Source of the DNA: an uncultured candidatus Porisulfidus sp.
GTDB lineage: Bacteria > Pseudomonadota > Gammaproteobacteria > Poriferisulfidales > Oxydemutatoraceae
DNA length: 64,000 nucleotides
Direction: 5' to 3'
NCBI GenBank assembly: GCA_965215765.1
Contig: OZ244118.1
Span: forward strand, 1,773,309 to 1,837,308
Part shown: in pieces, positions 22,505 to 40,506 of the stretch
Position numbering within the stretch: the first letter of the stretch is position 1
How the letters are laid out: every line of letters begins with the position of its first letter
Made by a program: the position numbers and the translations under genes
Notes under the pieces: generated by a model
Told to the model about the DNA's origin: nothing
The model's database searches: none
What the model saw: only the letters and a program-made list of their open reading frames with translations

Positions 22505-22870
22505 TTTTTTACTCCAAATTTATCTGAATAGGAACCGGGACGACAACCTGAACGGTTGCCACTTCCAATCTGCTCTACGGGGCTGCCGAGGAAGCAAACC
22601 CCTCACCAAAAGCTACTTCGAAACGCCAAAGTAGCCTCGGCATTGTACTTCGGCATCTCTGCGTGTCAATGACTTGCACACGACCAACTAAGCTCATGAC
22701 CCTACTTGAAGCCCAAGCTGGCTTTTAGCCGGGAATTTGGGTCAGCCGCTGCCGGCGGCGCTCATCCCCTGTTGAAAGAAGCTGTAAAACCAAGCCCTGA
22801 ACCGGTTCCAAAACATGAGCCCCTACGTGCCCGAAAAACTCCTGCCCGAAACAAGACCGGCCACAGACAA

Positions 22871-25800
22871 CTAACGAACCGCGCCACCGAGATATCCGCG
22901 CAACCGTAACCTCACACTGTCGGCTGGAGATGTACCTCCTGTCATAAATCCTTCTTCACGTGTGCCACCTGGCCCCACCGCATTTTGCGAAAATGTCACT
23001 ATCCGATATTGAGTCCCTGGCTTAAGGTCGGCAAAATCAAATATCACTGACGTTGAGGTCGTCTCCTTAACCGTACTGGCAATCTCTTTGCCACTGCCGT
23101 CAATAACCTTGACAACATAAGTCAAATTCAGGTCAATCCCATCAACTTGAGATCCATAGTCAGGATCCGTTGCCTTCCTGCCATACCCGTCGTTGTTGGA
23201 ACCTATGACCGTCACCTGTGCTGTGGTGGTTCCTATCCCTGTAGCAGTAACAGATGTTGGCGTACCCGGAACATCCAGAAGCGTAAATTCGGCAACAGAC
23301 GCAACCCCGTCACCTATGGCATTGACCGCCCGCACTGAATAGGCGATAGCCGCCCCTCCCTCATAGACGCCACGTATGCTGCGTAACACCGTGGGGGCAA
23401 CGTCATGCATAGTGGCGTTGGAGCTCAGCTGTATCGTTGAACCCGCCGTTGTATCACCGCTGACTGTCACCACATACGTCGTAATTGTGGATCCACCGTG
23501 ATGTGGTGCTGTCCAACTCAACACCAAGCTCTGCGTACTCTTCCAAACCGGATCCAAGAGTTCCGGCATTCCGGGCTCCACGGCATTCGTCTTAAATGCT
23601 CCCTCAAGTGAATCACTTGCCCCCACCGCATTTTGTACAAACGTCACTATCTGATATTGAGTCCCCGCCCTAAGACCATCCAATTCAATCGTCACGGATG
23701 CCTCGGTTGAGAGCATAGTCACACTCGAAACTATCTGATCGCCATTAAGAATGCTGACCTTATAGGCAAAGTTCAGATCAACCTTGTCAACAATAGAACC
23801 GTAGGTGGTAGTATCCGCTGCCTTTCTGCCATAACCATCGTTGTCGGGACCTATGACCGTCACCTGTACTGTGGTGGTTCCTATCCCTGTAGCAGTAACA
23901 GATGTTGGTGTACCCGGAACATCCAGAAGAACAAATGTACCGATGGACAGGCTCCCGTCACCTGCAGCATTGACTGCCTGCACCGAATAAGTGATTGTGT
24001 CCCCACCCTGAAAGCTCCTGCGTAAGGTCGTGGGACCAACGTCATGCATAGTGGAGTTGGAACCCAGCCGTGTCGTTGATTCCGCCGCCGTACTACTACC
24101 GACTGTCACCACATACGCCGTAGTTGCGGATCCACCATTAGGTGACGCTGTCCAACTCAACACCAAGCTCTGCGTACTCTTCCAAACCGGATCCAAGAGT
24201 TCCGGCATTCCGGGCTCCACGGCATTCGTCTTAAATGCTCCCTCAAGTGAATCACTTGCCCCCACCGCATTTTGTACAAACGTCACTATCTGATATTGAG
24301 TCCCTGGCTTAAGGTCGGCAAAATCAAATATCACTGACGTTGAGGTCGTCTCCTGATCCGTACTCGCAATCTCTTTGCCACTCCCGTCAAAAACCTTGAC
24401 AACATAAGTCAAATTCAGGTCAATCCCATCGACTTGAGACCCATAGTCAGGATCCGTTGCCTTCCTGCCATAACCATCGTTGTCGGAACCTATGACCGTC
24501 ACCCGCACGGTGTTGGCTCCTGACCCTGAAACTGTAACAGTTGTTGGCGCACTTGGAACATTCAGAATAGTAGATACGACAGTGCCCGCACTCCCGTTAC
24601 CAATATCATTGGTAGCCCGCACCGAATAAGTGATTGTGTCTCCACCTTGAAAATCCGCGTAGGCATCTACCCGGTGTTCGGCGGGAATAGAAGGAGCAAA
24701 CGTTGTTTCCGGGGCGATAATTTCTATATCATGAGGACCGATTTCGCCACCAAAAAAGTTGTATTTCGTAATTGCGGATCCACCATCGTATGGCTCATCC
24801 CAACTGAACACCTCCTTCAGCGTGGTCTCCCAGAACGAAACCACAATTGGTGCATCTGGTACGCCGACATTTGTCGTAAGTGGCTCCTCAAGCGCATTGC
24901 CTTCTCCCACCACGTTTCGTGCAGATACCACTGTCTGATATTGAGTCCCCGCCCTAAGGCCATCAAAGACAATCATCACTGACGTTAAGGTCGTCACCCG
25001 AACCATACTTGCAACCTCTTTGCCACTCCCGTCAAGAACCTTGACAACGTAGGCAAAATCCAGATCAACCTCACCGACTTTAGACCCATAGTCAGGATCC
25101 GCTAGCTCCCTGCCATAACCATCGTTGTCAGGACCACTGACCATCACTCGCACTTTTCTGGTCGCTGCTGAACCTGCCGTAACGTCTGAAGCTGTAACAA
25201 CTGTTGGCGCACCCGGAACATCCAAGAGAGTAAATGTCTCGTTCGCCGTACTCCCGGAACCGACCGCATTGAGTGCCCGCACCGTATAGGCGATTGTGTC
25301 CCCGCCCTGAAAGTCGCTGCGCAACGTCGTGGGAACAACGACATACATCGTAGTAGAACCCAGCTGTATCGGCGCAGTACCATTGACTGTCACCACATAC
25401 GTCGTAATCGTGGAACCACCATTATGTGGTGCTGTCCAACTCAACACCAGGCTCTGCGTACTCTTCCAAACCGGATCCAAGAGTTCCGGCATTCCGGGCT
25501 CCACGGCATTCGTCTTAAATGCCCCCTCAAGTGAATCACTTGCCCCCACCGCATTTTGTACAAACGTCACTATCTGATATTGAGTCCCCACCTTAAGACC
25601 ACCCAAGACGAGCGTCACAGATGTCGCGGTTGTGGCCTTGGTCATACTCGAAACCGAGTCACCATTAATAACATCCGTAACGTTGACAACATAAGCAAAA
25701 TTCAGTGCAACCTTGTCAACAATAGAACCGTAGGTGGTCGTATTCGTTGCCTTCCTGCCATAACCATCGTTGTCTGGTGCGTTGACCGTCACCTGCACTG

Positions 25801-28800
25801 TGGTGGTTCCTATCCCTGTAGCAGTAACAGATGTTGGCGTACCCGGAACATCCAAGAGAGTAAATGTCTCGTTCGCCGTACTCCCGTCACCTACAGCATT
25901 GACTGCCTGTACCGAATAGGCGATTGAGCCCCCACCCTGAAAGACGCTGCGTAAGGTCGATGGGTCAACTACAAGCATCGTGGAGCCAGAATCAAGCCGT
26001 GTCGTTGATTCCGCCTCCGTATCACCACCAACTGTCACCACATACGCCGTAATGGTGGAGCCACCATGATGGGGTGCTGACCAACTCAACACCAGGCTCT
26101 GCGTGGTTCCCCAGGACGAAGCTGTCATTGGTGCTTCTGGCACGCCGGCACTTGTTGTAAAAGATCTCATACGCACGCCACCTGACCCCAGCACATTTCG
26201 TACAAATGCCCTTACCGTATATTGAGTCCCCGCACTGAGACCATCAAAGTCAATCATCACTGACGTTGAGGCCGTCTTCCTGACCGTACTTGCAATCTCT
26301 ATACCACTACCATCAAGAACTTTGACAACGTAAGCAAAATTCAGGACAACCCCATCGACTTGGGTTCCATAATCAGGATCCGTTGGCCCCCTGCCATAAC
26401 CATCGTTGCCCGGACCGTTGACCGTCACCCGCACGGTGTTGGCTCCTGACCCTGAAACTGTAACAGTTGTTGGCGCACCCGGAACGTCCAGAAAAGCAAA
26501 TGCGGCAGTGGACTCACTCCCGGCACCAACATCATTGACTGCCTGCAGAAAAAAAGCCACTCCCTTGAGCCCGCCTTGAGAAGACCCTAAGCCAATAGGT
26601 TCATGAGCATCAAAAACAAACCGCGTTTGTGTGGCAGGCAGGGTTTGAAATCCGCCTGAACCCAAAGTACGCCTTCTGTATGACGTAATGGTGGATCCAC
26701 CATCGTATGGTGCTTCCCAACTGAACACCACCCTCAGCGTGTTCTCCCAGAACGGAGCGATAATTGGTGCTTCTGGCACGCCGGCACTTGTCGTAAATTC
26801 TCCCTCAAGCGTACCACCTGATCCCACCACGTTTCGTGCAGATGCCTTTACCGTATATTGAGTCCCCGCCTTAAGACCGTCCAAGACAATCATCACTGAC
26901 GTTGAGGTCGTCTCCTGAACCGTACTGGCAACCTCTATACCACTCCCGTCAAGAATCTTGACAACGTAGGCAAAATTCAGATCAACCCCATCAACTTGAG
27001 ATCCATAGTCAGAATCCGCTGCCTGCCTGCCATAACCATCGTTGTCGGGACCACTGACCGTCACTCGCACTTTTCTGGTCGCTGCTGAACCTGCCGTAAC
27101 GTCTGAAGCTGTAACAGATGTTGGCGTACCCGGCACATCCAGCAAAGTAAAACTCCCGAAAAACGGAGGACTCACTATCTCCGTCACTATCTGCGTATTC
27201 ACATTGCCGTCACCACTTGGAGGATTCACAACCCTCATCTCGCTACTGATGCGCACCGTATAAGAGACCGAGTCACCTCCCGCAAGATTCCCGCGCAGTT
27301 CCCGAGAAAGGTTGCCCAACTCAAAATTCGGTGAACGAGCCAAAAGAACCGTCGAACTTTCACCTACTTCCAATCCCAGCTCATAGTAGGTCGCGACACT
27401 CGCCGATCGCAGAACCAGGCTGTTTGTCGTACTCCACTCAAGCGACACGTCTGTTGGCGTAGCAGGTATCCGGGTCAGTGCTTTTAGTACTGGCAACGTA
27501 TGAGTACTGCCGAAATACCAAATATCAGAATCCCAGCCAGCGAAAGTTTCGGGTTCGCCTTCGGCACAGAAGCGCGAAGAAGCGGTGGGACACCGAAGTT
27601 GCGACAAAGTACGAGTTGAGCTTCCGGTAATCGTTCCTGAATTGTCACCAGCAAGTGTCGTAGGAATTTCCCCATTAACCGTGCCCGCCGCATAACTGCC
27701 TTCAATGGTTCCGCCTTGTTCCTCACTTTGAATGTTGGCTCCGGCTTGACCGTTGAGCCCAACAAAAATACTTAAGCCGGTCAACCCCGACGGGTTTCTT
27801 GGTGTCACGACGCTGTACGCATAGCTATTGCTGATGGTGCTTTGGTTTACACCCACAAGGCCCCCGACCGAGCCGTCTCCCCCAACCCTGACCCAAGCGT
27901 AGCTGTTCTCTACAAGAGCACCTTCCCGGACATGACCCACAAGGCCTCCAACCTCATAATCTCTCTCCGGGTCCCCAACAACCCCCGTCGCATAAGACTG
28001 CCTAATAACGCCACCACCCAAGAGATGACCCACAAGGCCACCCAACTCTCTTCCTTCAGCTTCGTCCGACCCTGTAACTACAATTCCAATTGCCTCGCTT
28101 CCCTGAACCATTCCACCTCCCACGAAGCCAGCCACGCCGCCTCCCTCACGTTCTGCTCCTATCGTGGAATCTGTCACACGCACGGTGGAGATACGACCAT
28201 CAGCCAGGTGACCCGCAACACCGCCAACGCCGAAGCTCCCTGTTATCGTGGAGGCCGTCACACGCGCAGCGGAGAGGGAGGCACTAATTCCGTGCAGGTC
28301 ACCTATAACGCCGCCTACCAGCTCGCCTCCTGTCACCACAGAGTTCGTCGCTGTGATTCTGGATATTGTGCTGTCTGCTGCACGACCCGCAACACCGCCC
28401 ACTCTGGTGTCTCCTGCCACCACAGAATCCGTCACTGTGATTCTGGATATTGTGCCATCTGTTGCACTACCTGCGAGAGTGCCCACTCTGGTGCTTCCTG
28501 TCACTACAGAACCCGTCACTGTGATTCTGGATATTGTGCTATCTGCTGCACGACCCACAACACCGCCAACATCTGCCTGCCCCGTTACCATGGAAGCTGT
28601 CACACGCGCGGGGAAGACACCGGATCTGTGCAGATCGCCTGTAATGCTGCCCACCAGTTCTGCTCCTGTCACTACAGAGTTCGTCACCGTGATGTTGGAT
28701 ATTGTGCTATCTAGTGCGCGACCTGCGAGAATGCCCACTCCGGTGCTTCCTGTCACTTTGGCTTCGAAAAAAATCAAATTCCTGATATCAGCAGCAGCAG

Positions 28801-29281
28801 ACAAGCGGGCAAACAAACCCACATCCTCTTCACCAAGACGGTAGATGAACAAGTTGGAAATTCGGTAACCCCTGCCATCAAAAGTCCCGGAAAAACCTGG
28901 ACTGCCGGTTCGTTGCCCGGTGACGCTGTAGGTGGCTCCTATAGGGGCAAAACCCTTACCATTGTTCCACCTGGGTGTCTGTGTCTCTCCTGCATCAATA
29001 TCAGTGCCCAGCCGGAAAGTCGGATTAGCGGGGACAAACGGCATCTCTAAAAATGCAGACAGGCTCTGTAACTGGCAAATATTGCTGATCTGATAGGTTC
29101 CAACTTCGCCTATTACTTGGGTGGGAAATTCCCCAAGCATGCACCCCACCCTGGCAGGTTGGGCGAAAAGTCCGGAACTCAGAGCCAGGCAAACCGCCAG
29201 CAGTACAAGCCTGCACCACGCTTCAGACGCACTCTGCACGTAGAAAGATTTGCTTTCAAAGTAACGATAACTTCTATTCAC
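22871..29281 (-). CDS. large secreted GLUG/ZmpB-like beta-helix + multiple fibronectin type III domain protein (adhesin A)
   Basis: Signal-like LVLLAVCLALSSGLFA|Q; WNNGKGFAPIG, FSGTFDGRGYRISNL, repeated VGGLVG; Fn3 patterns (LSWTAP..GGSTIT.Y, GL..GTQY). GAGG precedes GTG29281; the ORF track extends to 29404. Confidence 0.85.
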   Translation of the reverse strand: MNRSYRYFESKSFYVQSASEAWCRLVLLAVCLALSSGLFAQPARVGCMLGEFPTQVIGEVGTYQISNICQLQSLSAFLEMPFVPANPTFRLGTDIDAGETQTPRWNNGKGFAPIGATYSVTGQRTGSPGFSGTFDGRGYRISNLFIYRLGEEDVGLFARLSAAADIRNLIFFEAKVTGSTGVGILAGRALDSTISNITVTNSVVTGAELVGSITGDLHRSGVFPARVTASMVTGQADVGGVVGRAADSTISRITVTGSVVTGSTRVGTLAGSATDGTISRITVTDSVVAGDTRVGGVAGRAADSTISRITATNSVVTGGELVGGVIGDLHGISASLSAARVTASTITGSFGVGGVAGHLADGRISTVRVTDSTIGAEREGGGVAGFVGGGMVQGSEAIGIVVTGSDEAEGRELGGLVGHLLGGGVIRQSYATGVVGDPERDYEVGGLVGHVREGALVENSYAWVRVGGDGSVGGLVGVNQSTISNSYAYSVVTPRNPSGLTGLSIFVGLNGQAGANIQSEEQGGTIEGSYAAGTVNGEIPTTLAGDNSGTITGSSTRTLSQLRCPTASSRFCAEGEPETFAGWDSDIWYFGSTHTLPVLKALTRIPATPTDVSLEWSTTNSLVLRSASVATYYELGLEVGESSTVLLARSPNFELGNLSRELRGNLAGGDSVSYTVRISSEMRVVNPPSGDGNVNTQIVTEIVSPPFFGSFTLLDVPGTPTSVTASDVTAGSAATRKVRVTVSGPDNDGYGRQAADSDYGSQVDGVDLNFAYVVKILDGSGIEVASTVQETTSTSVMIVLDGLKAGTQYTVKASARNVVGSGGTLEGEFTTSAGVPEAPIIAPFWENTLRVVFSWEAPYDGGSTITSYRRRTLGSGGFQTLPATQTRFVFDAHEPIGLGSSQGGLKGVAFFLQAVNDVGAGSESTAAFAFLDVPGAPTTVTVSGSGANTVRVTVNGPGNDGYGRGPTDPDYGTQVDGVVLNFAYVVKVLDGSGIEIASTVRKTASTSVMIDFDGLSAGTQYTVRAFVRNVLGSGGVRMRSFTTSAGVPEAPMTASSWGTTQSLVLSWSAPHHGGSTITAYVVTVGGDTEAESTTRLDSGSTMLVVDPSTLRSVFQGGGSIAYSVQAVNAVGDGSTANETFTLLDVPGTPTSVTATGIGTTTVQVTVNAPDNDGYGRKATNTTTYGSIVDKVALNFAYVVNVTDVINGDSVSSMTKATTATSVTLVLGGLKVGTQYQIVTFVQNAVGASDSLEGAFKTNAVEPGMPELLDPVWKSTQSLVLSWTAPHNGGSTITTYVVTVNGTAPIQLGSTTMYVVVPTTLRSDFQGGDTIAYTVRALNAVGSGSTANETFTLLDVPGAPTVVTASDVTAGSAATRKVRVMVSGPDNDGYGRELADPDYGSKVGEVDLDFAYVVKVLDGSGKEVASMVRVTTLTSVMIVFDGLRAGTQYQTVVSARNVVGEGNALEEPLTTNVGVPDAPIVVSFWETTLKEVFSWDEPYDGGSAITKYNFFGGEIGPHDIEIIAPETTFAPSIPAEHRVDAYADFQGGDTITYSVRATNDIGNGSAGTVVSTILNVPSAPTTVTVSGSGANTVRVTVIGSDNDGYGRKATDPDYGSQVDGIDLNLTYVVKVFDGSGKEIASTDQETTSTSVIFDFADLKPGTQYQIVTFVQNAVGASDSLEGAFKTNAVEPGMPELLDPVWKSTQSLVLSWTASPNGGSATTAYVVTVGSSTAAESTTRLGSNSTMHDVGPTTLRRSFQGGDTITYSVQAVNAAGDGSLSIGTFVLLDVPGTPTSVTATGIGTTTVQVTVIGPDNDGYGRKAADTTTYGSIVDKVDLNFAYKVSILNGDQIVSSVTMLSTEASVTIELDGLRAGTQYQIVTFVQNAVGASDSLEGAFKTNAVEPGMPELLDPVWKSTQSLVLSWTAPHHGGSTITTYVVTVSGDTTAGSTIQLSSNATMHDVAPTVLRSIRGVYEGGAAIAYSVRAVNAIGDGVASVAEFTLLDVPGTPTSVTATGIGTTTAQVTVIGSNNDGYGRKATDPDYGSQVDGIDLNLTYVVKVIDGSGKEIASTVKETTSTSVIFDFADLKPGTQYRIVTFSQNAVGPGGTREEGFMTGGTSPADSVRLRLRGYLGGAVR

Positions 29282-29690
29282 CAGAGATTTCCTCGAGACA
29301 TGTGATAGCGTAGCAGAAAAAAGCGGCTTTACCAACTTTCGCGATTTTCGCACCTTATCATGGTTAAAAATAAATGCGTACTCACAAGAAGGGGTACCCC
29401 CCAATCAATTCTGTTGAGCCAGCACCCGAACAGTACCAAAGGTCAGGCCAAGACATCACCTTCTCATCAGGATGAATGCATAAGTACCCGTACACCGACC
29501 CCCCGGTTTTTTTCCTGACTTGGCAGCCCTGCCTGAAGCCTGCTTTTAGCCAGAAATTTTAAGCTAGCCTCTGTCGGCGGAGCTCCTTCCCCGTTGAAAG
29601 AAGCTGTAAAACCAAGTTCTGGGTGGTTCAAAACATGAGCTCCTACGTGCCTGAAAAAACCTTGCCCGAAACAAGACTGACCATAGACAA
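29282..29690. repeat. conserved ~400-bp intergenic module between adhesin genes (copy 1)
   Basis: Highly similar to 32649-33030 and 37930-38326. Its parts match 22705-22870, 40415-40626 and 40975-40994. Confidence 0.9.
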
Positions 29691-32648
29691 CTAACGAACC
29701 GCGCCACCGAGATATCCGCGCAAGCGCAATCTCACCCTGTCAGTTGTAGGCGTACCTCTTGTCATAAATTCTCTTTGATGCGTACCACCTGGCCCCAACG
29801 CATTTTGTACAAATGCCACTACCGTATATTGAGTCTCTGGCTCAAGACCACCCAAGACAAGCGTCATTGACGTCGATCGCGTCTCCATAACCGTGCTGGC
29901 AATTGCTTTGCCACTACTATCAGTAACGCTGACGACATAAGCAAATTTCAGGTCAACCCCTTCGGCTTCAGAGCCGTAGGCAGTATCCGTTGTCCTCCGG
30001 CCATAACCATCGTTGTCGGGGGCGTAGACCGTCACCCGCACCGTGGTGATCCCCGCCGTAACCTGAACCTGAGTAAAAGTTAACGTGCCCGGAAAAGCCA
30101 AGAGAGTAAATGTGCCGGTAGACAGGCTCCCAGTGCCCTTAGCATTTTCTGCCCGCACCGAATAAAAGATTTTGTCCCCACCCCGAGAGATGCTGCGTAT
30201 GCTGCTTAACATCGTGGAGTCAACGACAAACACCGTGGAGGCAGAATCCAGCCGTATCGTTAATTTCGCCACCGTATCACCACCGACTGTCACCACATAC
30301 GCCGTAATGGTGGATCCACCATGATGTGGCGCTGTCCAACTCAGCACCAGACGTTGTGTGGTCTCCCGAGTCGTAACTACAATTGGCGCTTCTGGCTCTC
30401 CGTCAAGAGTCTTAAAGTATTCAGAAAAAAGCTTGCCACCTGCTCCCACCGCGTTTTGCGCAAATGCCACTATCCGATACTGAGTCCCCGCCCTGAGACC
30501 ATCCAAGTCAATCGTCACGGATGCCGCGGTTGAAGACATGGTCACACCCGGAACCAAGTTGTCACTGTCATCAGTAGCACTGACAACATAAGCAAAATTC
30601 AGATCAACCTCACCGACTTTAGATCCATAGTCAGGATCCGTTGCCCCCCTGCCATAGCCATCGTTGGCAGGGGCACCAACTGTCACCCGCACGGTGGTGG
30701 CTCCCTCTGGAGTGCTCACCATGGTTGGCGTACCCGGTACATCCAGCAAAATAAAACTCCCGGTAGACGGAGGACTCACTATCTCCGTCACTATCTGCGT
30801 ATTCTCGTTGCCGTCACCACTTGGAGGATTCACAACTCTCGTCTCGCTACTGACGCGCACCGTATAAGAAACCGAGTCACCTCCCGCAAAGTTCCCGCGC
30901 AGTTCCCGAGAAAGATCGTTCAGCTCAAAATTTGGCGAACGAGCAAAAAGGACTGTCGAACTTTCACCTACCTCCAACCCCAGCTTATAGTAGGTCACAT
31001 CAGGGGTGCTCGCTGAGCGCAGAACCAGGCTGTTTGCCGAACTCCATTCAAGCGACACGTCTGTTGGCGTAGCAGGTATCCGTGTCAGTCCTTTTAGCAC
31101 TGGCAACGTGTGAGCACTGCCAAAATACCAAATATCAGGGTTCCAGCCAGCGAAGGTTAAGGATTCGGGTGTGGCTCCGACACAAGAACTCGAAGGAGAG
31201 ACGGGACACCGAAGTTGCGACAAAGTGCGAGTTGAACTTTCAGTAATCGTTCCTGCTTCTTCGTCTGTAACAGCATAGGAACCAGCAAGTCTCACAGGAG
31301 TTGCCCCATTAACCTTGCCCGCCACATAACTGCCTTCAATCGCGCCTGTTACGGAATTAAAGTCTGGACCGTTAGAACCAACAAGAGCACCCAAGTAGCT
31401 TGGCCCGCCTGCTGGTGTCACGACGCTATATGCGTATGTATTTCTGATAGTGCCCAGGTTAGCACCCACAAGGCCCCCAATCGGGCTATCTCCTGCAACC
31501 CCAACCCATGCGTAGCTGTTTTCTACAAGAGCACCTGGCTGGAGGTAGCCTACAAGGCCTCCAACCCCAAGTCCTGTTGCCAGTCTCCCAACAAGCCCCG
31601 TCGCATAAGACTGCCTAATAACGCCTTTACCCAAGAGACGACCCACAAGACCACCCAGTTGTCTTCCTTGAAACGGCTTTCCTCTTGATACAAATCCACC
31701 TTTAATTAAAATTCCGATTGCCGCACTTCCCTGAATTATTCCACCACTCATGATGCCAACCATGCCGCCTCCCTTGTTTGTTGCTGTTATCGTGGAAGCT
31801 GTCACACGCGCGGTGGAGATACGACCATCAAGTTGGCGACCCGCAACACCGCCAACAAAGGATTTCCCTGTTATCCTGGAAGCCGTCACACGTACGTCAG
31901 AAACATCGACTCCGTTCGAGTCACCTATAACGCCGCCCACTACCTGTGCACTTCCCGTCACTTCAGAATTCGTCACCGTGATGTTGGAAATTGTGCTATT
32001 ACCTTCTGCACGACCTGCGAGAATGCCCACTTCAGAGTCTCCTGCCACTACAGAATTCGTCACCGTGATGTTGGAAATTGTGCTACCTGCTGCTCGGCCT
32101 GTGAGAACACCCACCCTATTGCCTCCTGCCACATCAGCTTTGGAAAAAACCAGGTTCTTGACAACAGCACCATCCAGGCGAGCAAACAAACCTGCATCAT
32201 CTTCACTAGTGTGGTGGATGAGTATGTCGAAAATTTGGTGACCGTCACCATCCAAAACCCCGGAAAATGCACGACTATCGATTGGCTCCCTGATTCCAGG
32301 GTAAAAGATGACTCCAATAGGAAAAAAGCCTGAAAAACGGTCAAAAAAACCGCCGACCATGGTGGTTCTGGTCTCACTCGCGTCAATGTCGGTCACTAGC
32401 AGGTAGTTCGCTGTCAGGGTTGTGATGTTTTGCAACTGCCGAATATTGCAGATCTTATAGGGATCCATTTTAGTCCCGGCACCTGCATTGGGTTTCGAAC
32501 TACCGGAGTCGCACGGGGTATTGTCTTGCGCGAAAAGCCCGGTACTCAGGGTCAGGCAAACCGTCAGCAATACAAGCCTGCACCGCGCTTCAGACACACT
32601 CTGTACGTAGGAAGATGTGCTTTCAAAGTAACGATAACTTCTATTCAC
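29691..32648 (-). CDS. secreted GLUG/beta-helix + Fn3 domain protein (adhesin B)
   Basis: Same architecture: GAGTKMDPYKICNIRQLQ, FSGVLDGDGHQI, VGGLVG repeats, Fn3 domains, same C-terminus. GAGG precedes GTG32648. Confidence 0.85.
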   Translation of the reverse strand: MNRSYRYFESTSSYVQSVSEARCRLVLLTVCLTLSTGLFAQDNTPCDSGSSKPNAGAGTKMDPYKICNIRQLQNITTLTANYLLVTDIDASETRTTMVGGFFDRFSGFFPIGVIFYPGIREPIDSRAFSGVLDGDGHQIFDILIHHTSEDDAGLFARLDGAVVKNLVFSKADVAGGNRVGVLTGRAAGSTISNITVTNSVVAGDSEVGILAGRAEGNSTISNITVTNSEVTGSAQVVGGVIGDSNGVDVSDVRVTASRITGKSFVGGVAGRQLDGRISTARVTASTITATNKGGGMVGIMSGGIIQGSAAIGILIKGGFVSRGKPFQGRQLGGLVGRLLGKGVIRQSYATGLVGRLATGLGVGGLVGYLQPGALVENSYAWVGVAGDSPIGGLVGANLGTIRNTYAYSVVTPAGGPSYLGALVGSNGPDFNSVTGAIEGSYVAGKVNGATPVRLAGSYAVTDEEAGTITESSTRTLSQLRCPVSPSSSCVGATPESLTFAGWNPDIWYFGSAHTLPVLKGLTRIPATPTDVSLEWSSANSLVLRSASTPDVTYYKLGLEVGESSTVLFARSPNFELNDLSRELRGNFAGGDSVSYTVRVSSETRVVNPPSGDGNENTQIVTEIVSPPSTGSFILLDVPGTPTMVSTPEGATTVRVTVGAPANDGYGRGATDPDYGSKVGEVDLNFAYVVSATDDSDNLVPGVTMSSTAASVTIDLDGLRAGTQYRIVAFAQNAVGAGGKLFSEYFKTLDGEPEAPIVVTTRETTQRLVLSWTAPHHGGSTITAYVVTVGGDTVAKLTIRLDSASTVFVVDSTMLSSIRSISRGGDKIFYSVRAENAKGTGSLSTGTFTLLAFPGTLTFTQVQVTAGITTVRVTVYAPDNDGYGRRTTDTAYGSEAEGVDLKFAYVVSVTDSSGKAIASTVMETRSTSMTLVLGGLEPETQYTVVAFVQNALGPGGTHQREFMTRGTPTTDRVRLRLRGYLGGAVR

Positions 32649-33030
32649 CAGCGATTTCCTCGAGACCTCTGACAGCGCAACTGAAAAAAGCGGATTTTCG
32701 CGATTAAAAATAAACGCATACTCACAAGTAAAGGGTACATGCCCCAATCCATCCTGTTGAGTCAGCACCCGAATAGTACCAAGGGTCAGGCTAAGACATC
32801 ACCTTCTCATCAGGATGAATGCATAAGTACCTGTACACCGGCTCCCGGTTTTTTCCTGACTTGGCAGCCCAGCCTGAAGCCCGCTTTTAGCCAGAAATTT
32901 GGGTCAGCCGCTGTCGGCGGTGCTCCTCCCCTGTTGAAAGAAGCTGTGAAACCAAGTTCTGGGTGGTTCAAAACATGAGCTCCTACGTGCCTGAAAAAAC
33001 CTTGCCCGAAACAAGACTGACCATAGACAA
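32649..33030. repeat. conserved intergenic module between adhesin genes (copy 2)
   Basis: Direct sequence similarity to copies 1 and 3. Confidence 0.9.
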
Positions 33031-36000
33031 CTAACGAACCGCTCCACCGAGATATCCGCGCAAGCGCAATCTCACCCTGTCAGCTGCAGATGTACCTCCT
33101 GTCGTAAATCCTTCTTCATGTGTGCCACCTGGCCCCACCGCATTTTGTACAAATGCCACTATCTGATATCGAGTTCCCGCCTTAAGGCCGTTCAAGACAA
33201 GCGTCACCGATGTTGCGGTTGTGGTCTCTGTCATACTCGAAACCGAGTTGCCGCCACCATCAATAACGCTGACAACATAAGCAAAATCCAGTTCAACCTT
33301 GTCAACAATGGAACCGTAGGTGGTTGTGTCCGTTGCCTTCCTGCCATAACCATCGTTATCAGTGGCGTTGACTGTCACCCGAACCGTGGTGACCCCCGTC
33401 GTAACCTGAACCTGAGTAGCAGCTAACGTACCCGGTACATCCAGAAGCGTAAATTCGGCAACAGACGGAACCCCGTCACCTATAGCATTGATCGCCCGCA
33501 CCGAATAAGGGATTTTGTCCCCACCCCGAGAGATGCTGCGTATGCTGCTTAACACCGTGGAGTCAACGACACGCATCGTGGAGTCAGAATCAAGCCGTGT
33601 CGTTGATTCCGCCTCCGTACTACCACCAACTGTCACCACATACGCCGTAATTGTGGACCCACCGTGATGTGGTGCTGTCCAACTCAACACCAGACGTTGT
33701 GTGCCCTCCCAGACCGAAGCAATCACTGGTGCTTCTGGCACCCCGACACCGGTCGTAAATCCTCCTTCATTCGCGCCACCTGATCCCACCGCATTTTGTA
33801 CAAGTGTCACTATCCGGTATTGTGTCCCTGCCCTAAGTCCAGCCAAGTCAATCATCACCGATGCCTCGGTTGTGACCCTGGTCATACTCGAAACCGAGTT
33901 GCCGCCACCATCAATAACGCTGACAACATAAGCAAAGTTCAGATCAACCTTGTCAACAATGGAACCGTAGGTGGTCGTGTCCGTTGCCTTCCTGCCATAA
34001 CCATCGTTGTCAGGGGCGTTGACAGTCACCCGAACCGTGGTGACCCCCGTCGTAACCTGAACCTGAGTAGCAGTTAACGTGCCCGGTACATCCAGAAGCG
34101 TAAATTCGGCAACAGACGTAACCCCGTCACCTATGGCATTGATCGCCCGCACCGAATAAGGGATTTTGTCCCCACCCCGAGAGATGCTGCGTATGCTGCT
34201 TAACACCGTGGAGTCAACGACACGCATCGTGGAGTCAGAATCAAGCCGTGTCGTTGATTCCGCCTCCGTACTACCACCAACTGTCACCTCATAACCCATA
34301 ATTGTGGATCCACCGTGATGTGGTGCTGTCCAACTCAACACCAGACGTTGTGTGCCCTCCCAGACCGAAGCAATCACTGGTGCTTCTGGCACCCCGGCAC
34401 CGGTCGTAAATCCCCCTTCATACGCGACACCTGCTCCCACTACGTTTTGTACAAATGTCACTATCCGGTATTGAGTTCCTGCCCTAAGTCCAGCCAAGTC
34501 AATCATCACCGATGCCTCGGTTGTGACCCTGGTCATACTCGAAACCGAGTTGCCGCCACCATCAATAACGCTGACAACATAAGCAAAGTTCAGATCAACC
34601 TTGTCAACAATGGAACCGTAGGTGGTCGTGTCCGTTGCCTTCCTGCCATAACCATCGTTGTCAGGGGCGTTGACAGTCACCCGAACCGTGGTGACCCCCG
34701 TCGTAACCTGAACCTGAGTAGCAGCTAACGTACCCGGTACATCCAGAAGCGTAAATTCGGCAACAGACGTAACCCCGTCACCTATGGCATTGATCGCCCG
34801 CACCGAATAAGGGATTTTGTCCCCACCCCGAGAGATGCTGCGTATGCTGCTTAACACCGTGGAGTCAACGACACGCATCGTGGAGTCAGAATCAAGCCGT
34901 GTCGTTGATTCCGCCTCCGTACTACCACCAACTGTCACCTCATAACCCATAATTGTGGATCCACCGTGATGTGGTGCTGTCCAACTCAACACCAGACGTT
35001 GTGTGCCCTCCCAGACCGAAGCAATCACTGGTGCTTCTGGCACCCCGGCACCGGTCGTAAATCCCCCTTCATACGCGACACCTGCTCCCACTACGTTTTG
35101 TACAAATGTCACTATCCGGTATTGAGTTCCTGCCCTAAGTCCAGCCAAGTCAATCATCACCGATGCCTCGGTTGTGACCCTGGTCATACTCGAAACCGAG
35201 TTGCCGCCACCATCAATAACGCTGACAACATAAGCAAAGTTCAGATCAACCTTGTCAACAATGGAACCGTAGGTGGTCGTGTCCGTTGCCTTCCTGCCAT
35301 AACCATCGTTGTCAGGGGCGTTGACAGTCACCCGAACCGTGGTGACCCCCGTCGTAACCTGAACCTGAGTAGCAGCTAACGTACCCGGTACATCCAGAAG
35401 CGTAAATTCGGCAACAGACGTAACCCCGTCACCTATGGCATTGATCGCCCGCACCGAATAAGGGATTTTGTCCCCACCCCGAGAGATGCTGCGTATGCTG
35501 CTTAACACCGTGGAGTCAACGACACGCATCGTGGAGTCAGAATCAAGCCGTGTCGTTGATTCCGCCTCCGTACTACCACCAACTGTCACCTCATACGCCG
35601 TAATGGTGGACCCACCGTCGTATGGTGCTGTCCAACTCAACACCAGACGTTGTGTGCCCTCCCAGACCGAAGCAATCACTGGTACTTCTGGCACCCCGGC
35701 ACCGGTCGTAAATCCCCCTTCATACGCGCCACCTGCTCCCACTACGTTTTGTACAAATGTCACTATCCGGTATTGAGTTCCTGCCCTAAGTCCAGCCAAG
35801 TCAATCATCACCGATGCCTCGGTTGTGACCCTGGTCATACTCGAAACCGAGTTGCCGCCACCATCAATAACGCTGACAACATAAGCAAAGTTCAGATCAA
35901 CCTTGTCAACAATGGAACCGTAGGTGGTCGTGTCCGTTGCCTTCCTGCCATAACCATCGTTGTCAGGGGCGTTGACAGTCACCCGAATCGTGGTGACCCC

Positions 36001-37929
36001 CGTCGTAACCTGAACCTGAGTAGCAGCTAACGTACCCGGTACATCCAGCAAAATAAAACTTCCTAAAAGCGGAGGACTCACTATCTCCGTCACTATCTGC
36101 GTATTCTCGTTGCCGTCACCACTTGGAGAATTCACAACTCTCGTCTCGCTACTGACGCGCACCGTATAAGAAACCGAGTCACCTCCCGCAAGATTTCCGC
36201 GTAGTTCCCGAGAAAGGTCGCCCAACTCAAAATTTGGTGAACGAGCTAACAGGACTGTCGAACTTTCACCCACCTCCAACCCCAGCTCATAGTAGGTCAC
36301 ATCAGGGGTACTCGCCGATCGCAGAACCAGGCTGTTTGTCGTACTCCATTCAAGCGACACGTCTGTTGGCACAGCAGGTATCCGGGTCAGTGCTTTTAGT
36401 ACTGGCAACGTATGAGTACTGCCGAAATACCAAATATCAGAATCCCAGCCAGCGAAAGTTTCGGGTTCGCCTTCGGCACAGAAGCGCGAAGAAGCGGTGG
36501 GACACCGAAGTTGCAACAAAGTACGAGTTGAGCTTCCGGTAATCGTTCCTGAATTGTCACCAGTAAGTGTCGTAGGAATTTCCCCATTAACCGTGCCCGC
36601 CGCATAACTGCCTTCAATGGTTCCGCCTTGTTCCACACTTTGAATGTCGGCTCCGGCTTGACCGTTGAGCCCAACAAAAATACTTAAGCCGGTCAACGCC
36701 GACGGGTTTCTTGGTGTCACAACGCTGTACGCATAGCTATTGCTGATGGTGCTTTGGTTTACACCCACAAGGCCCCCGACCGAGCCGTCTCCCCCAACCC
36801 TGACCCAAGCGTAGCTGTTCTCTACAAGAGCACCTTCCCGGACATGACCCACAAGGCCTCCAACCTCATAATCTCTCTCCGGGTCCCCAACAACCCCCGT
36901 CGCATAAGACTGCCTAATAACGCCACCTTTTATGAGATGACCCACAAGGCCACCCAACTCTTTTCCTCCATCTTCTTCCGACCCTGTAACTACAATTCCA
37001 ATTGCCTCGCTTCCCTGAATTCCACCTCCCACGGAGCCAGCCACGCCACCTCCCTCACGTTCTGCTCCTATCGTGGAATCTGTCACACGCACGGTGGAGA
37101 TACGAGCATCAGCCAGGTAACCCGCAACACCGCCAACCTCTGCCTGCCCTGTTATCGTGGAAGCCGTCACGCGCGCAGCGGAGAGGGAGGCGCCAATTCC
37201 GCTAAACTCCCCTATAACACCGCCTACCAGCTCGCCTCCTGCCACCACAGAGTTCGTCACTGCGATGTCGGATATTGTGCCATGTAGTGCACGACCTGCG
37301 AGAGTGCCCACTCTGGTGCGCCCAGTGGAGCTTCCTGTCACTACAGAACCTGTCACTGTGATTCCGGATATTGTGCTTTGTAGTGCATGACCTGCGAGAA
37401 TGCCCACTCTGGTTCTTCCTGTCACTTTGGCTGTGGAAAAAGTCAAGTTCTTGATATCAGCAGTATGAGAGAAGGCAAACAAACCCACACCCTCTTCAAC
37501 GGGGCGGTCAATGAACAAGTTGGAAATTCGGTAACCCCCACCATCAAAAGCCCCGGAAAAACCTGGGCTGTCTGGACTGTCGGTTCGTAGCCCGGTGGTG
37601 CTGTAGGTGGCTCCAATGGGGGCAAAACCCTTATCACCGTTCAAATCCTTGGTGGTACTCGCGTCAATGTCGGTCACTAGCACGTAGTGCGCTGTCAGGG
37701 TTGTGATGTTTTGCAGCTGCTGAATATTGCAGATCTTATAGGGATTAGTTTCAATCCCGGCACCTGCATTGGGTTTCAAACTACCGGAGTCGCACGGGGT
37801 AATGTCTTGCGCGAAAAGCCCGGTACTCAGGGTCAGGCAAACCGTCAGCAGCACAAGCCTGCACCACGCTTCAGACGCACTCTGCACGTAGAAAGATTTG
37901 CTTTCAAAGTAACGATAACTCCCATTCAT
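33031..37929 (-). CDS. secreted GLUG/beta-helix + tandem Fn3 repeat protein (adhesin C)
   Basis: Same architecture with ~4.5 copies of a 217-aa unit. GAGG precedes ATG37929. Confidence 0.85.
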   Translation of the reverse strand: MNGSYRYFESKSFYVQSASEAWCRLVLLTVCLTLSTGLFAQDITPCDSGSLKPNAGAGIETNPYKICNIQQLQNITTLTAHYVLVTDIDASTTKDLNGDKGFAPIGATYSTTGLRTDSPDSPGFSGAFDGGGYRISNLFIDRPVEEGVGLFAFSHTADIKNLTFSTAKVTGRTRVGILAGHALQSTISGITVTGSVVTGSSTGRTRVGTLAGRALHGTISDIAVTNSVVAGGELVGGVIGEFSGIGASLSAARVTASTITGQAEVGGVAGYLADARISTVRVTDSTIGAEREGGGVAGSVGGGIQGSEAIGIVVTGSEEDGGKELGGLVGHLIKGGVIRQSYATGVVGDPERDYEVGGLVGHVREGALVENSYAWVRVGGDGSVGGLVGVNQSTISNSYAYSVVTPRNPSALTGLSIFVGLNGQAGADIQSVEQGGTIEGSYAAGTVNGEIPTTLTGDNSGTITGSSTRTLLQLRCPTASSRFCAEGEPETFAGWDSDIWYFGSTHTLPVLKALTRIPAVPTDVSLEWSTTNSLVLRSASTPDVTYYELGLEVGESSTVLLARSPNFELGDLSRELRGNLAGGDSVSYTVRVSSETRVVNSPSGDGNENTQIVTEIVSPPLLGSFILLDVPGTLAATQVQVTTGVTTIRVTVNAPDNDGYGRKATDTTTYGSIVDKVDLNFAYVVSVIDGGGNSVSSMTRVTTEASVMIDLAGLRAGTQYRIVTFVQNVVGAGGAYEGGFTTGAGVPEVPVIASVWEGTQRLVLSWTAPYDGGSTITAYEVTVGGSTEAESTTRLDSDSTMRVVDSTVLSSIRSISRGGDKIPYSVRAINAIGDGVTSVAEFTLLDVPGTLAATQVQVTTGVTTVRVTVNAPDNDGYGRKATDTTTYGSIVDKVDLNFAYVVSVIDGGGNSVSSMTRVTTEASVMIDLAGLRAGTQYRIVTFVQNVVGAGVAYEGGFTTGAGVPEAPVIASVWEGTQRLVLSWTAPHHGGSTIMGYEVTVGGSTEAESTTRLDSDSTMRVVDSTVLSSIRSISRGGDKIPYSVRAINAIGDGVTSVAEFTLLDVPGTLAATQVQVTTGVTTVRVTVNAPDNDGYGRKATDTTTYGSIVDKVDLNFAYVVSVIDGGGNSVSSMTRVTTEASVMIDLAGLRAGTQYRIVTFVQNVVGAGVAYEGGFTTGAGVPEAPVIASVWEGTQRLVLSWTAPHHGGSTIMGYEVTVGGSTEAESTTRLDSDSTMRVVDSTVLSSIRSISRGGDKIPYSVRAINAIGDGVTSVAEFTLLDVPGTLTATQVQVTTGVTTVRVTVNAPDNDGYGRKATDTTTYGSIVDKVDLNFAYVVSVIDGGGNSVSSMTRVTTEASVMIDLAGLRAGTQYRIVTLVQNAVGSGGANEGGFTTGVGVPEAPVIASVWEGTQRLVLSWTAPHHGGSTITAYVVTVGGSTEAESTTRLDSDSTMRVVDSTVLSSIRSISRGGDKIPYSVRAINAIGDGVPSVAEFTLLDVPGTLAATQVQVTTGVTTVRVTVNATDNDGYGRKATDTTTYGSIVDKVELDFAYVVSVIDGGGNSVSSMTETTTATSVTLVLNGLKAGTRYQIVAFVQNAVGPGGTHEEGFTTGGTSAADRVRLRLRGYLGGAVR
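33100..36050. repeat. intragenic 651-bp tandem repeat, ~4.5 copies
   Basis: cgt(a/g)cccggtacatccag recurs at ~33427, 34078, 34729, 35380 and 36031 (period 651). Confidence 0.95.
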
Positions 37930-38326
37930 TAACGATTTCCTCAAGGTCTCAAACAGCGCAACTGGAAAAGGCAACTTTACCAACTTTTGCGATTTTCGTG
38001 GTTAAAAATAAATGCGTACTCACAAGAAGGGGTACCCCCCAATCAATTCTGTTGAGCCAGCACCCGAATAGTACCAAAGGTCAGGCCAAGACACCACCTT
38101 CTCATCAGGATGAATGCATAAGTACCCGTACACCGACCCCCGGTTTTTTTCCTGACTTGGCAGCCCTGCCTGAAGCTTGCTTTTAGCCAGAAATTTGGGT
38201 CAGCCACTGTCGGCGGCGCTCCTCCCCCGTTGAAAGAAGCTGTGAAACCAAGTTCTGGGTGGTTCAAAACATGAGCTCCTACGTGCCTGAAAAAACCTTG
38301 CCCGAAACAAGACTGACCATAGACAA
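37930..38326. repeat. conserved intergenic module between adhesin genes (copy 3)
   Basis: Direct sequence similarity to copies 1 and 2. Confidence 0.9.
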
Positions 38327-40412
38327 CTAACGAACCGCGCCACCGAGATATCCGCGCAAGCGCAATCTCACCCTGTCAGCTGCAGATGTACCTCCTGTCG
38401 TAAATTCCTCTTCATGCATAGCACCTGACCCCACCGCATTTTGTACAAATGCCTCTACCGCATATCGAGTCTCTGGCTCAAGCCCCCCCAAGGCAAGCGT
38501 CACCGATGTTGCGGTTGTGGCCTTGGTCATACTCGGAACCGAGTTGCCATTAATAACATCCGTAACCTTGACAACATAGGCAAAATTCAGTGCAACCTTG
38601 TCAACAATAGAACCGTAGGTGGTCGTGTTCGTTGCCTTCCTGCCATAACCATCGTTGTCGGGGGCGTAGGCTGTCACCCGCACCGTGGTGATCCCCGCCG
38701 TAACCCGAACCTGAGTAACAGTTAACGTGCCCGGAACAGCCAAGAGAGTAAATGTACCGGTATACAGGCTCCCAGTGCCCTCAGCATTTTCTGCCCGCAC
38801 TGAATAAGGGATTTTGTCCCCACCCGCAGACACGCTGCGTATGCTACGTAACACCGTGGAGTCAACGACAAGCATCGTGGAGGCAGAATCCAGCCGTGTC
38901 GTCAATTTCGCCACCGTATCACCACCGACTGTCACCACATACGCCGTAATGGCAGATCCACCATCGTCTGGCACTTTCCAACTCAGCACCAGACTCTGCG
39001 TACTCTCCTAGACCGAAGCTGTCACTGATGGTGCCAGCACCCCGGGCACCTCAGCAGTGCCCGTAAAAAATCCTGCCAGTGCAGCACCGGCACCCACCGC
39101 GTTTCGTACCCTGGCCTCCAGCTGATAGTCTGCCACTCGCACCAGATCAAGCCCGGCAAAGGTCACGGATGTTGAGGTCGTCTGCGTACTGTCCAGCACG
39201 TCACCGCCGCTAATCACGCTCACCACATAGACCAAATTCAGATCAACATCATCAACTTGCACACCGTGCCCGGCTACCCCTGCCGTACGCCCATATCCGT
39301 CGTTGTCCAGACCGCTGACCGTCACCCGCACGGTGCTGGCTCCAATCTCGACAGTGCTCACCGCAGTCGGCGTACCCGGCACGTTCAGCAACCTGAATGT
39401 CCCACTCGCCGTACTCCCGAAACCGGCCGCATTTTCTGCCCGCACCGTATAGGCGATGTTCTCCCCACCCGCAGACACGCTGCGCAACGTCGTCGGATCA
39501 AAGTCAAGACTCGTGGAGTTGGAGTTCATCTGTACCATCGACTCACCGCCGACTCTCACCTCATAATCCGTAATCGCCGAGCCGCCTTCCGCCTCCGGTG
39601 CTGTCCAACTCAGCACCAGACGTTGCGTGCCCGCCCAACGCGCAGCCACAAGTCCCGGGTCCCCGGGCACCTTGGCGATCGTAAAGGCTCCCGTCTGCGC
39701 AGCACCGGCACCCACCGCGTTTCGTACCCTGGCCTCCAGCTGATAGTCTGCCACTCGCACCAGATCAAGCCCGGCAAAGGTCACGGATGTTGAGGTCGTC
39801 TGCGTACTGTCCAGCACGTCACCGCCGCTAATCACGCTCACCACATAGACCAAATTCAGATCAACATCATCAACTTGCACACCGTGCCCGACTACCCCTG
39901 CCGTACGCCCATATCCGTCGTTGTCCAGACCGCTGACCGTCACCCGCACGGTGCTGGCTCCAATCTCGACAGCGCTCACCGCAGTCGGCGTACCCGGTAC
40001 ATCCAGCAAGGTAAATGTCCCGCTCGCCACACTCCCGGAACCGACCGCATTGAGTGCCCGCACCGTGTAAGTGATGTCCTCCCCACCCACAGAGACGCTA
40101 CGCAACGTCATCGGATCAAAGTCAAGACTCGTGGAGTTGGGTCTCAGCTGTATCGGCAACCCATCGCCGACGCTCACCTCGTAGCCCAATCGCCGAGCCG
40201 CCGTCCGCCTCCGGCGCACTCCAGCTCAGCACCAGACGCTCCGTACCCGCCCAACGCGCATCTATAAGTTCCAGCTCCCCAGGAACCACGGTATTTGTGG
40301 AACCTTGCGCGAAAAGTCCGGTACTCAGGGTCAGGCAAACCGTCAGCAATACAAGGCTGCACCACGCTTCAGGCACGCTCCGCACACAGGAAGTTTTTCC
40401 TTGTCTTTTCAC
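38327..40412 (-). pseudogene. Fn3-only adhesin paralog D, disrupted (frameshift near 40187, TGG>TAG at 39008-39010)
   Basis: Split over three ORFs (40122-40559, 39008-40219, 38327-38989). Same signal peptide and C-terminus as A-C. Internal 618-bp repeat (matching positions 39081 and 39699). Confidence 0.82.
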
Positions 40413-40462
40413 CGGCGGTTTTTCCCGAGTTCTCTGACGGCGCAACTGAAAAAAGCGGCTTT

Positions 40463-40506
40463 TACCAACTTTCGCGATTTTTGCGCCTTTCGCGGTTAAA
40501 AATAAA
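40463..40506 (-). promoter_or_regulatory. 44-bp shared upstream motif TTTATTTTTAACCGCGAAAGGCGCAAAAATCGCGAAAGTTGGTA (function unknown)
   Basis: 41/44 identical to 54678-54721 (+). Variants at ~29330-29373, ~32697-32714, ~37978-38012 (-) and ~46633-46667, ~47830-47858, ~53536-53570 (+). Confidence 0.55.

Follow-up and report, generated by a model that had tools for sequence, protein, structure and literature searches.

Short C-terminal signals have repeatedly pointed the way to bacterial sorting systems: LPXTG, PEP-CTERM, GlyGly-CTERM and the C-terminal domain of the type IX secretion system (T9SS) were each found as a peptide common to numerous proteins of a single genome, and in every case a dedicated machine was discovered by way of it. 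In Bacteroidota, the T9SS signal takes the form of a folded domain of some 70-100 residues. In outer-membrane proteins, the beta-signal is part of a beta-barrel and has an aromatic residue at its end. In Gammaproteobacteria, the GlyGly-CTERM/rhombosortase signal is described on proteins that are secreted through a type II secretion system (T2SS) and retained at the surface, such as VesB of Vibrio cholerae (PMC6219818, PMC3237569, PMC12369372). Here we analysed a 64,000-nt stretch of DNA (the window; contig OZ244118.1, positions 1,773,309 to 1,837,308) from an uncultured gammaproteobacterium, candidatus Porisulfidus sp., in which four neighbouring genes end in the same 14 residues. The last 12 of these form a real and strongly selected C-terminal tag that has not been described before and that is carried by the exported adhesin repertoire of a small group of gammaproteobacterial sponge symbionts. 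The tag is under selection at the peptide level, occurs on Sec-exported, adhesin-like cargo of diverse kinds and differs between genera in a concerted way. It is probable, if far from certain, that it serves as a lineage-specific sorting or anchoring signal that is read by one shared, genome-specific envelope component.

The window is part of a genome (G000) that consists of a single 2,997,607-bp contig. We scanned the ends of all open reading frames (ORFs) in the six frames of this contig for the motif [FYW][LIVM][GD]G..[RK] and obtained 87 matches, five of which had no LR.R upstream and were removed by eye. The resulting 82 tagged ORF ends compare with 2 matches for the reversed motif at ORF starts, and at least two additional ends carry Leu at position 6 (LLGGAVR). 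A whole-genome scan had been suggested by an earlier reading of the letters of the window alone (the sequence-only reading); since it yields 82 tagged ORFs, the tail is not confined to the four paralogs on which it was noticed. Together the tagged ORFs make up 15.0% of the genome length, with 24 of at least 3,000 residues, 26 of 1,000-2,999, 23 of 300-999 and 9 short fragments. Within the genus, the consensus of the last 12 residues is L-R-[LVI]-[RK]-x-[FY]-L-G-G-[AM]-[VI]-R-stop, to which the window family adds VR in front.

These 82 tails represent 27 peptides and are written in 62 distinct 36-nt spellings. Leu1 is spelled by all six Leu codons, and Arg2 and Arg12 by five Arg codons each, while L7, G9 and R12 are invariant in every copy. 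Because the spellings vary across the 82 copies, we conclude that it is the peptide itself that is kept, a conclusion that does not come from the comparison of the four paralogs. No Pfam or NCBIfam model describes the tail, and a full-text search with tail peptide strings found no paper describing it; in NCBIfam, three of three 40-residue tails gave 0 families at E<=1, and six full-length proteins gave no family matching the tail. Elsewhere in the genome, at 306916-308071 and 408065-408462 (minus strand), runs of four and two ORFs of 52-78 codons consist solely of the linker and tail of the adjoining giant gene, and are tandem duplications of 3' gene ends.

The tagged array of the window contains the following features:

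22871..29404, minus strand: gene 1, an exported protein with a GLUG beta-helix and Fn3 repeats (2177-codon ORF; Pfam fn3 4e-39, Glug 9e-14), the last gene in the array
22874..22915, minus strand: tail 1, 14 codons for VRLRLRGYLGGAVR, with the stop codon at 22871-22873
29162..29221, minus strand: signal-peptide core of gene 1, AWCRLVLLAVCLALSSGLFA, then Q (translation and hydrophobic-segment scan; predicted cleavage site)
29691..32768, minus strand: gene 2, GLUG and Fn3 (1025-codon ORF; Pfam)
29694..29735, minus strand: tail 2, 14 residues identical to tail 1 (ORF and DNA)
32529..32588, minus strand: signal-peptide core of gene 2, ARCRLVLLTVCLTLSTGLFA, then Q (translation and hydrophobic-segment scan)
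33031..37983, minus strand: gene 3, GLUG and Fn3 repeats (1650-codon ORF; Pfam)
33034..33075, minus strand: tail 3, 14 residues identical to tail 1, with GGA replacing GGC (ORF and DNA)
37810..37869, minus strand: signal-peptide core of gene 3 (translation and hydrophobic-segment scan)
38327..40559, minus strand: gene 4, broken into three pieces, Fn3 only (ORF map)
38330..38371, minus strand: tail 4, 14 residues identical to tail 1 (ORF and DNA)
22701..22870, minus strand: family-specific conserved 3' flank of gene 1, about 170 nt (alignment)

Reading of the ORFs and the DNA placed all four tails where the sequence-only reading had put them, on the minus strand, each followed by TAG. Its codon count was also exact: four differences in 42 coding bases (AGG/AGA, TTA/TTG, CGG/CGC and GGC/GGA), all synonymous and with 0 replacements, behind a linker that varies from gene to gene (TSPADS, TPTTDR, TSAADR and TSAADR in genes 1-4). 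The absence of an autotransporter barrel, RTX repeats and a transmembrane (TM) tail from the window proteins likewise agrees with Pfam and with the sequence. The description of four GLUG/Fn3 genes needs amending: three genes are intact and have both GLUG and Fn3 in Pfam, but the fourth is broken and has Fn3 without the GLUG part. Its signal peptide lies in 40125-40559, a second piece (39008-40219) is in a different frame, and the third (38327-38989) lies past an in-frame TAG at 39008-39010.

DNA similarity between the four copies runs about 170 nt past the stop codon, and the block that follows gene 1 is also present after genes 2-4 (29521-29690, 32861-33030 and 38157-38326). Because this 3' unit was duplicated together with the genes, the synonymous-only pattern, from which selection on the peptide had been argued, is weak by itself among four young paralogs; support for selection comes from the genome-wide codon pattern. 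The tail is nevertheless the peak of conservation, with 4 variable sites in 42, versus 129 in 300 in the coding DNA immediately upstream and 43 in 170 in the downstream block. No Rfam family matched the conserved flank, which folds weakly (z = -2.2); it is part of the duplicated gene unit and separate from the peptide tag.

The tag is carried by proteins that are otherwise unrelated. When the tails were removed and the longer ORFs grouped by single-linkage BLAST, three unconnected groups of 51, 5 and 8 ORFs were obtained. Shared GLUG and Fn3 modules unite the largest. For the two small families, with proteins of about 750 and about 850 residues, there was no credible Pfam match and no BLAST link to GLUG; one of the three members scanned gave scattered weak matches to unrelated families, and a PDB sequence search returned 0 matches. 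Presence on unrelated passengers was the observation that the sequence-only reading had named as support for a sorting signal, and it is found in the GLUG/Fn3 giants, in these two families without a credible Pfam match, and in cadherin, He_PIG, Big_9 and Fn3 proteins of a public metagenome-assembled genome (MAG; see below). A signal-peptide-like N-terminus was called in 62 of the 74 tag-bearing called genes, versus 431 of 2299 other genes. At least five types of signal peptide with A-x-A-like ends occur among the tagged proteins, and several of the 12 unflagged genes show one by eye.

The window family also shows where the tag sits relative to the folded part of the protein. Ahead of it come the final Fn3 G-strand (EEGFMT) and a linker of 8 residues, so that it stands where the internal repeats start their next domain. 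The 15 residues that precede the tag contain 14.3% Pro and 11.9% Thr, versus 4.4% and 5.7% genome-wide. As far as these sequences tell, the tag is an addition to the fold and does not form part of a domain. In a single AlphaFold model (5 sequences), the mean predicted local distance difference test score (pLDDT) was 56.7, and in the tail region (residues 185-220) it was below 50, so that packing of the tail into the last Fn3 domain is neither supported nor excluded by this model.

We then compared the relatives of this organism: G000, G001 and G002 form the source genus (g1), G004 represents genus g3, and G005, G009, G015 and G017 belong to genus g4. A strict DNA pattern of the tag occurs at 70, 18 and 7 sites in the three genomes of the source genus, and at 0 in 38 other relatives and in the controls. 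A loose tail pattern gave 74 matches in G000, 24 in G001, 6 in G002, 216 in G004 and 5-12 in the g4 genomes; each of the remaining 44 of the order's 53 genomes gave 0-2, as did the controls. Among the matches that were listed and fetched, the tails of G004 read LRLR[LIV]FLEGPLR. The giant GLUG proteins of g3 end in ...IRIRLRVFLEGPLR, and those of g4 (about 5,900 residues) in ...V[NHQ][IV]RV[FL][LP]EGLLR. The similar strand 'L(R/K)VFLEGA/P' of other surface proteins, to which the sequence-only reading had likened the tail, is real: proteins of the sister genera end in ...LRVFLEGPLR and ...RVFLEGLLR.

The tag version goes with the genome and is independent of the cargo. In the source genus GLUG giants have the ending GG[AM]VR, in g4 EGLLR and in g3 EGPLR, and a public MAG of the EGPLR type has this ending on small Ig-like proteins too. 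Because the version tracks the genome rather than the cargo, this is the pattern expected if one component reads all tagged proteins and drifts with its ligand. An otherwise tail-negative genus contains, at G013:C1:1226613-1227498, two start-less 45-codon ORF remnants that lie 748 bp apart and end in ...RIRMFLEGPLP; by their sequence, they look like relics of lost tagged genes. This genus is the closest to the source genus for the few proteins compared. Since a tail-negative closest relative keeps such remnants, the tag system would seem to be ancestral to the family and to have been lost repeatedly. GLUG-repeat frames that stay open for 10,000 to about 19,000 codons were seen in G003, G005, G009, G012 and G017; the one C-terminus seen in a giant frame of the tail-negative G003 reads ...VPVSACDVCLPPLE and is without the tag.

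Public collections contain the tag in the same lineage. A scan for R-x-FLEGPLR-stop in one genome per species (185,579 species) gave 119 stretches. Among the 80 that were listed, 73 fall in one MAG titled 'Candidatus Oxydemutatoraceae bacterium', a family that NCBI puts in Gammaproteobacteria, and the other 7 are singletons in unrelated phyla, versus about 17 expected by chance according to our own estimate. The public loci hold 147 tails of the form [LIV]FLEGPLR, 134 of them LRLR[LIV]FLEGPLR, on signal-peptide proteins mostly of 290-960 residues; 12 of the 36 proteins scanned match cadherin, He_PIG, Big_9, Fn3, InlB-B or SCAB-Ig, and 24 match none. A profile of 36 tails, which has little power because it is short, was searched against 1.84 billion proteins (E<=0.001) and found 7 matches: 6 at the extreme C-terminus, all of these tail types, and 1 in an internal repeat of an unrelated protein. 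A homology search with the last 246 residues of a window protein returned 10 proteins, 8 of which end in VRLRLR[GA]YLGGAVR.

By analogy, the tag would work in the manner of those C-terminal signals that connect many proteins with one sorting machine (LPXTG, PEP-CTERM, GlyGly-CTERM and the T9SS domain), but it fails defining features of each. The likeness to GlyGly-CTERM includes the taxonomic setting in Gammaproteobacteria, Sec-exported cargo (there including a serine protease followed by an Ig-like domain), the relation of many cargo proteins to one reader and the final location on the cell surface. However, GlyGly-CTERM consists of a Gly/Ser motif, a membrane-spanning helix and a basic cluster, whereas the tag ends three residues after G-G (E-G in the sister genera), and no NCBIfam model for GlyGly-CTERM matches it. 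A rhomboid-family match, at family level with subfamilies not distinguished, is present in all five genomes tested, including two tail-negative ones. LPXTG/sortase and PEP-CTERM/exosortase are likewise lineage-specific signals that occupy the very C-terminus of many surface proteins in a genome. These signals need a TM helix, a basic tail and a dedicated transpeptidase, whereas the tag has no TM segment, PEP motif or LPXTG; sortase (PF04203) and exosortase (EpsH, PF09721) each matched in 0 of the 5 genomes. The T9SS domain resembles the tag in its Sec-exported cargo, often giant adhesins or proteases with Ig/Fn3 repeats, in its C-terminal position and in surface attachment. The tag differs in measuring 12 residues and in occurring in Gammaproteobacteria, and the 19 G000 proteins scanned have no such Pfam domain (Por_Secre_tail).

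Other systems share the physical form of the tag or the nature of its cargo. The beta-signal read by BamA/BamD is, like the tag, a short amphipathic C-terminal beta-strand on a Sec-exported protein, recognised by strand pairing; unlike it, the tag motif ends in Arg in 82 of 82 copies, and Pfam finds no barrel domain. Type V secretion, both autotransporter and two-partner, carries very long beta-helical passengers across the outer membrane in a Sec-dependent way, but here there is no C-terminal barrel: PF03797 gave no match above the cut-off in any of the five genomes and none in the window proteins. No TpsB or TamA was found either: a search for a second Omp85 protein gave in G000 one PF01103 match, a 794-residue frame of BamA size, and likewise one in G001 and in G002. 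Type I secretion substrates have no Sec signal, an uncleaved C-terminal signal and often RTX repeats, in contrast to the tagged genes, which are signal-peptide-like in 62 of 74 cases and show no RTX in the Pfam scan. In pili, C-terminal strands dock in a comparable manner (PapD-type chaperones gripping the carboxylate of a subunit, or PilY1 and minor pilins): a terminal beta-strand with a free carboxylate is the docking element, and many adhesins could share one scaffold. However, the usher (PF00577) was found in 0 of 5 genomes with a positive E. coli control, and the type IV pilus (T4P)-like cluster described below is not specific to tail-positive genomes. The PilY1 propeller (PF05567) was found in 0 of 21 genomes, but was also silent in all 14 control genomes, which makes this negative uninformative.

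We infer that the tag is read by a protein, and infer likewise its mode of binding and the route of the cargo. The cargo would be exported by Sec and would lose its signal peptide, and the proline/threonine-rich linker would keep the tag apart from the last folded domain. The tag would then offer a seven-residue amphipathic beta-strand, with a Leu/Val face opposite an Arg/Lys/aromatic face, followed by a G-G (or E-G) turn and by a hydrophobic residue and an Arg with its free carboxylate. One shared envelope component in each genome may bind this element, most plausibly by edge-strand addition together with recognition of the terminal Arg and carboxylate; we favour such docking because of the physical form of the tag (strand, turn and Arg-carboxylate end). 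This component might feed the C-terminal end of the rod-like adhesins to an outer-membrane exit, or tether them at the cell surface. A broader proposal, which we put forward tentatively and which may well prove wrong, is that this is a new envelope-sorting pathway of Gram-negative bacteria, in which a 12-residue tag that does not span the membrane sends Sec-exported proteins, from fewer than 300 up to about 5,900 residues long, onto or across the outer membrane, with a reader outside the known families of sorting enzymes and translocators, and with tag and reader co-evolving (GG-x-VR, EGPLR, EGLLR). Of the idea that a single strand is read by an outer-membrane translocator or a surface scaffold, the signal itself has gained ground, in that the peptide is under selection and sits on unrelated passengers, but no candidate translocator or scaffold was found.

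Several observations weigh against this sorting reading. Many of the 82 copies are recent tandem paralogs, and are therefore not independent. A founder effect with lineage-specific expansion, which we regard as the weaker alternative to a co-drifting component, could yield genus-specific versions without a co-evolving reader. Four of the 82 tails carry two extra residues (...RRE) where the stop codon has changed to CGA; unless these copies are defunct, they argue that the Arg carboxylate is not strictly required. Nothing about the tail can be learnt from the AlphaFold model. We were not able to find a reader of the tag among known translocators, sorting enzymes, secretins, candidate families and gene neighbourhoods. 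The secretins of G000 number four: that of the canonical T2SS, that of a T4P-like cluster directly downstream of a tagged array, that of an odd T4P-like cluster between two arrays, and one resembling the type III secretion system (T3SS). Only the canonical T2SS and the T4P-like cluster downstream of a tagged array are also present in G004 with its 216 tails, and these are the only two secretin systems common to all tail-positive genera examined; the gene content of these clusters is equal in the tail-positive G004, G005 and G009 and in the tail-negative G003, G006, G007 and G008. Nor does the distribution of the S41 peptidase, of PDZ proteins (including GspC) or of rhomboids follow the tag, as tail-negative relatives have them. 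The M14 zinc carboxypeptidase of the window is found in 12 of the 12 family relatives searched, the DUF3450/ExbB/TonB cluster does not follow the distribution of the tag, and only housekeeping genes surround the 13 isolated tagged genes examined in G001 and G002. DUF3108, with one conserved copy everywhere and co-duplicated fragments in the G000 arrays, is not differential either.

A further candidate was a secreted protein of 834 residues (G000 1033179-1035683, minus strand). It has a signal peptide and, at the N-terminus, a PDZ domain, followed by a helical middle part and some twelve beta-helix-like repeats of the GDDxY/GDDxF type. Full-length copies occur solely in the three genomes of the source genus, with weak PDZ-level matches elsewhere, and because the protein is absent from the other tail-positive genera it cannot be the general reader. 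Subtraction of the nearest tail-negative genome (88% of it covered) from G000 left 158 signal-peptide-like ORFs scored as absent, among them LptD, SurA, TolB and DUF3450 as false absences from the other 12%, and this list was not used. The PDZ domain of GspC is a putative reader worth considering: in Vibrio cholerae, a 2025 paper reports, the PDZ domain of GspC/EpsC is required solely for VesB, which combines a protease with an Ig fold and bears a sorting tag at its C-terminus (PMC12369372).

Two observations concern the genes met in this search. DUF3108 fragments recur just downstream of several tagged genes in G000 (2100630-2144266, minus strand; full copy at 2137782-2138639), which indicates that the duplication unit included a neighbouring gene, and each of the other four genomes has one match. 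The T3SS-like secretin (G000 2827561-2831305, plus strand) has an SPI-1-type N0 domain and a C-terminal SPOR domain, and lies beside a YscD/CdsD-like protein, forming a T3SS-like pair; this secretin type was found in genera g1, g4 and g6, and not in g3.

Other explanations dispense with such a reader or with sorting. The tag might be a membrane anchor that needs no partner, its Leu/Arg strand lying at the interface of the outer membrane and lipopolysaccharide with Leu in the lipid and Arg/Lys on the phosphates, and so holding the adhesin without a protein reader. The strictly alternating L-R-L-R-x-F-L and the lack of a dedicated reader gene fit this idea, and alternating Leu-Lys peptides reportedly form amphiphilic beta-sheets at interfaces, as described by DeGrado and Lear in 1985. 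We find it unlikely, as the most invariant part of the tag is its non-amphipathic end (GG[AM]VR in G000; EGPLR in 147 of 147 public tails), which a lipid interface does not require, and the net charge of the g4 tails (VNIRVFPEGLLR) is only about +1. It would be surprising, too, if the tag were a C-terminal pro-peptide by which a protease of the periplasm that reads protein tails (a PDZ protease of the DegP/Q type or an S41 C-terminal processing peptidase) takes hold of the protein, and which is removed in maturation and controls folding or turnover instead of location. Short C-terminal extensions cut off by S41 enzymes are an established class, and each of the five genomes tested has an S41 peptidase and several PDZ proteases, but the tail-negative relatives have the same enzymes, and the tail ends in Arg, whereas the PDZ pockets of such proteases usually take a small or hydrophobic terminal residue. 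A handle kept on adhesins alone over 15% of a reduced genome is also hard to explain.

Cargo proteins could alternatively assemble with one another, the C-terminal strand inserting into other cargo or pairing with other tags, so that different adhesins together build a coat or fibres. A separate receptor was not found, and the tag is the sole element common to all cargo families, yet these unrelated families share no conserved acceptor module and differ in their N-termini, which makes self-assembly improbable. Already disfavoured, and in our view very improbable, is the explanation that the tag has no sorting role and that the ends are alike only because 3' gene ends were tandemly duplicated and gene-converted in a genome prone to arrays of this kind. 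It can draw on the 3' flank that was co-duplicated with the genes, and on the arrays of tail-bearing fragments of 52-78 codons at 306.9-308.1 kb and 408.0-408.5 kb; but the families diverge synonymously with the peptide kept (62 spellings; six Leu codons at position 1), their linkers and 3' flanks differ, and the tag occurs on families without other similarity and in three genera. Just as little credence is due to the exposed hydrophobic-Arg-COOH end acting as a ligand for a sponge receptor, with no need for a bacterial reader: related public records are titled as sponge-symbiont MAGs and the cargo is adhesin-like, but the idea is pure speculation, and a concerted change in all proteins between bacterial genera would not be expected from it.

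A sorting or anchoring tag with its own envelope component would matter for several reasons. A reduced symbiont genome devotes about 15% of its DNA to proteins tagged with one peptide, a relative has 216 matches to the tail pattern, and no known sorting machine was found. If a new reading component is indeed involved, it would explain how uncultured sponge symbionts display huge repertoires of adhesins, and how beta-helical proteins of about 600 kDa that depend on Sec get out of the periplasm when there is no type V transporter. As a practical marker, the 12-residue pattern identifies the whole surface-protein repertoire of these symbionts from sequence alone.

The window and the genome contain further features apart from the tagged genes. 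Just downstream of the tagged array, between GroEL and the M14 carboxypeptidase, lie two paralogous ORFs of 608 and 614 residues (window 15817-17643 and 18344-20188, minus strand) that are 78% identical and have no Pfam family and no signal peptide; a 42%-identical relative is found at the same place in G002. Beside the M14 zinc carboxypeptidase, two adjoining genes encode Cds6_C NTF2-like proteins (window 12141-14386, plus strand, and 14435-15325, minus strand), one of them fused to a YkuD L,D-transpeptidase. At window 46769-47359, 53672-54262 and 54824-55477 (plus strand), small signal-peptide ORFs of 196, 196 and 217 residues start with MKSISVGLALLVAAF... or MKYILVGLVLLVAA..., each near one of three tRNA genes (47435-47507, 54338-54410 and 58711-58783, minus strand), two of which have identical tRNA scores. 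Two C5 DNA methylases and a BsuBI/PstI-type restriction enzyme (48071-50022 and 52050-53351) lie between these ORFs, and the region looks like a locally duplicated segment with restriction-modification genes. A single ORF at window 6637-7845 (minus strand) encodes both a fatty-acid desaturase domain (residues 15-218) and part of an ISL3 transposase (residues 281-389); the remnant of an insertion sequence has probably interrupted or extended this gene. Finally, a tandem array of about 600-bp units with overlapping repeated ORFs (...LNRAGSDKGPLLRIHAVGFGSGVHVPASFTLLMRELSYRNNGTFIGLK), located at approximately 2758300-2761000 in G000, appears to copy the end of a neighbouring gene.

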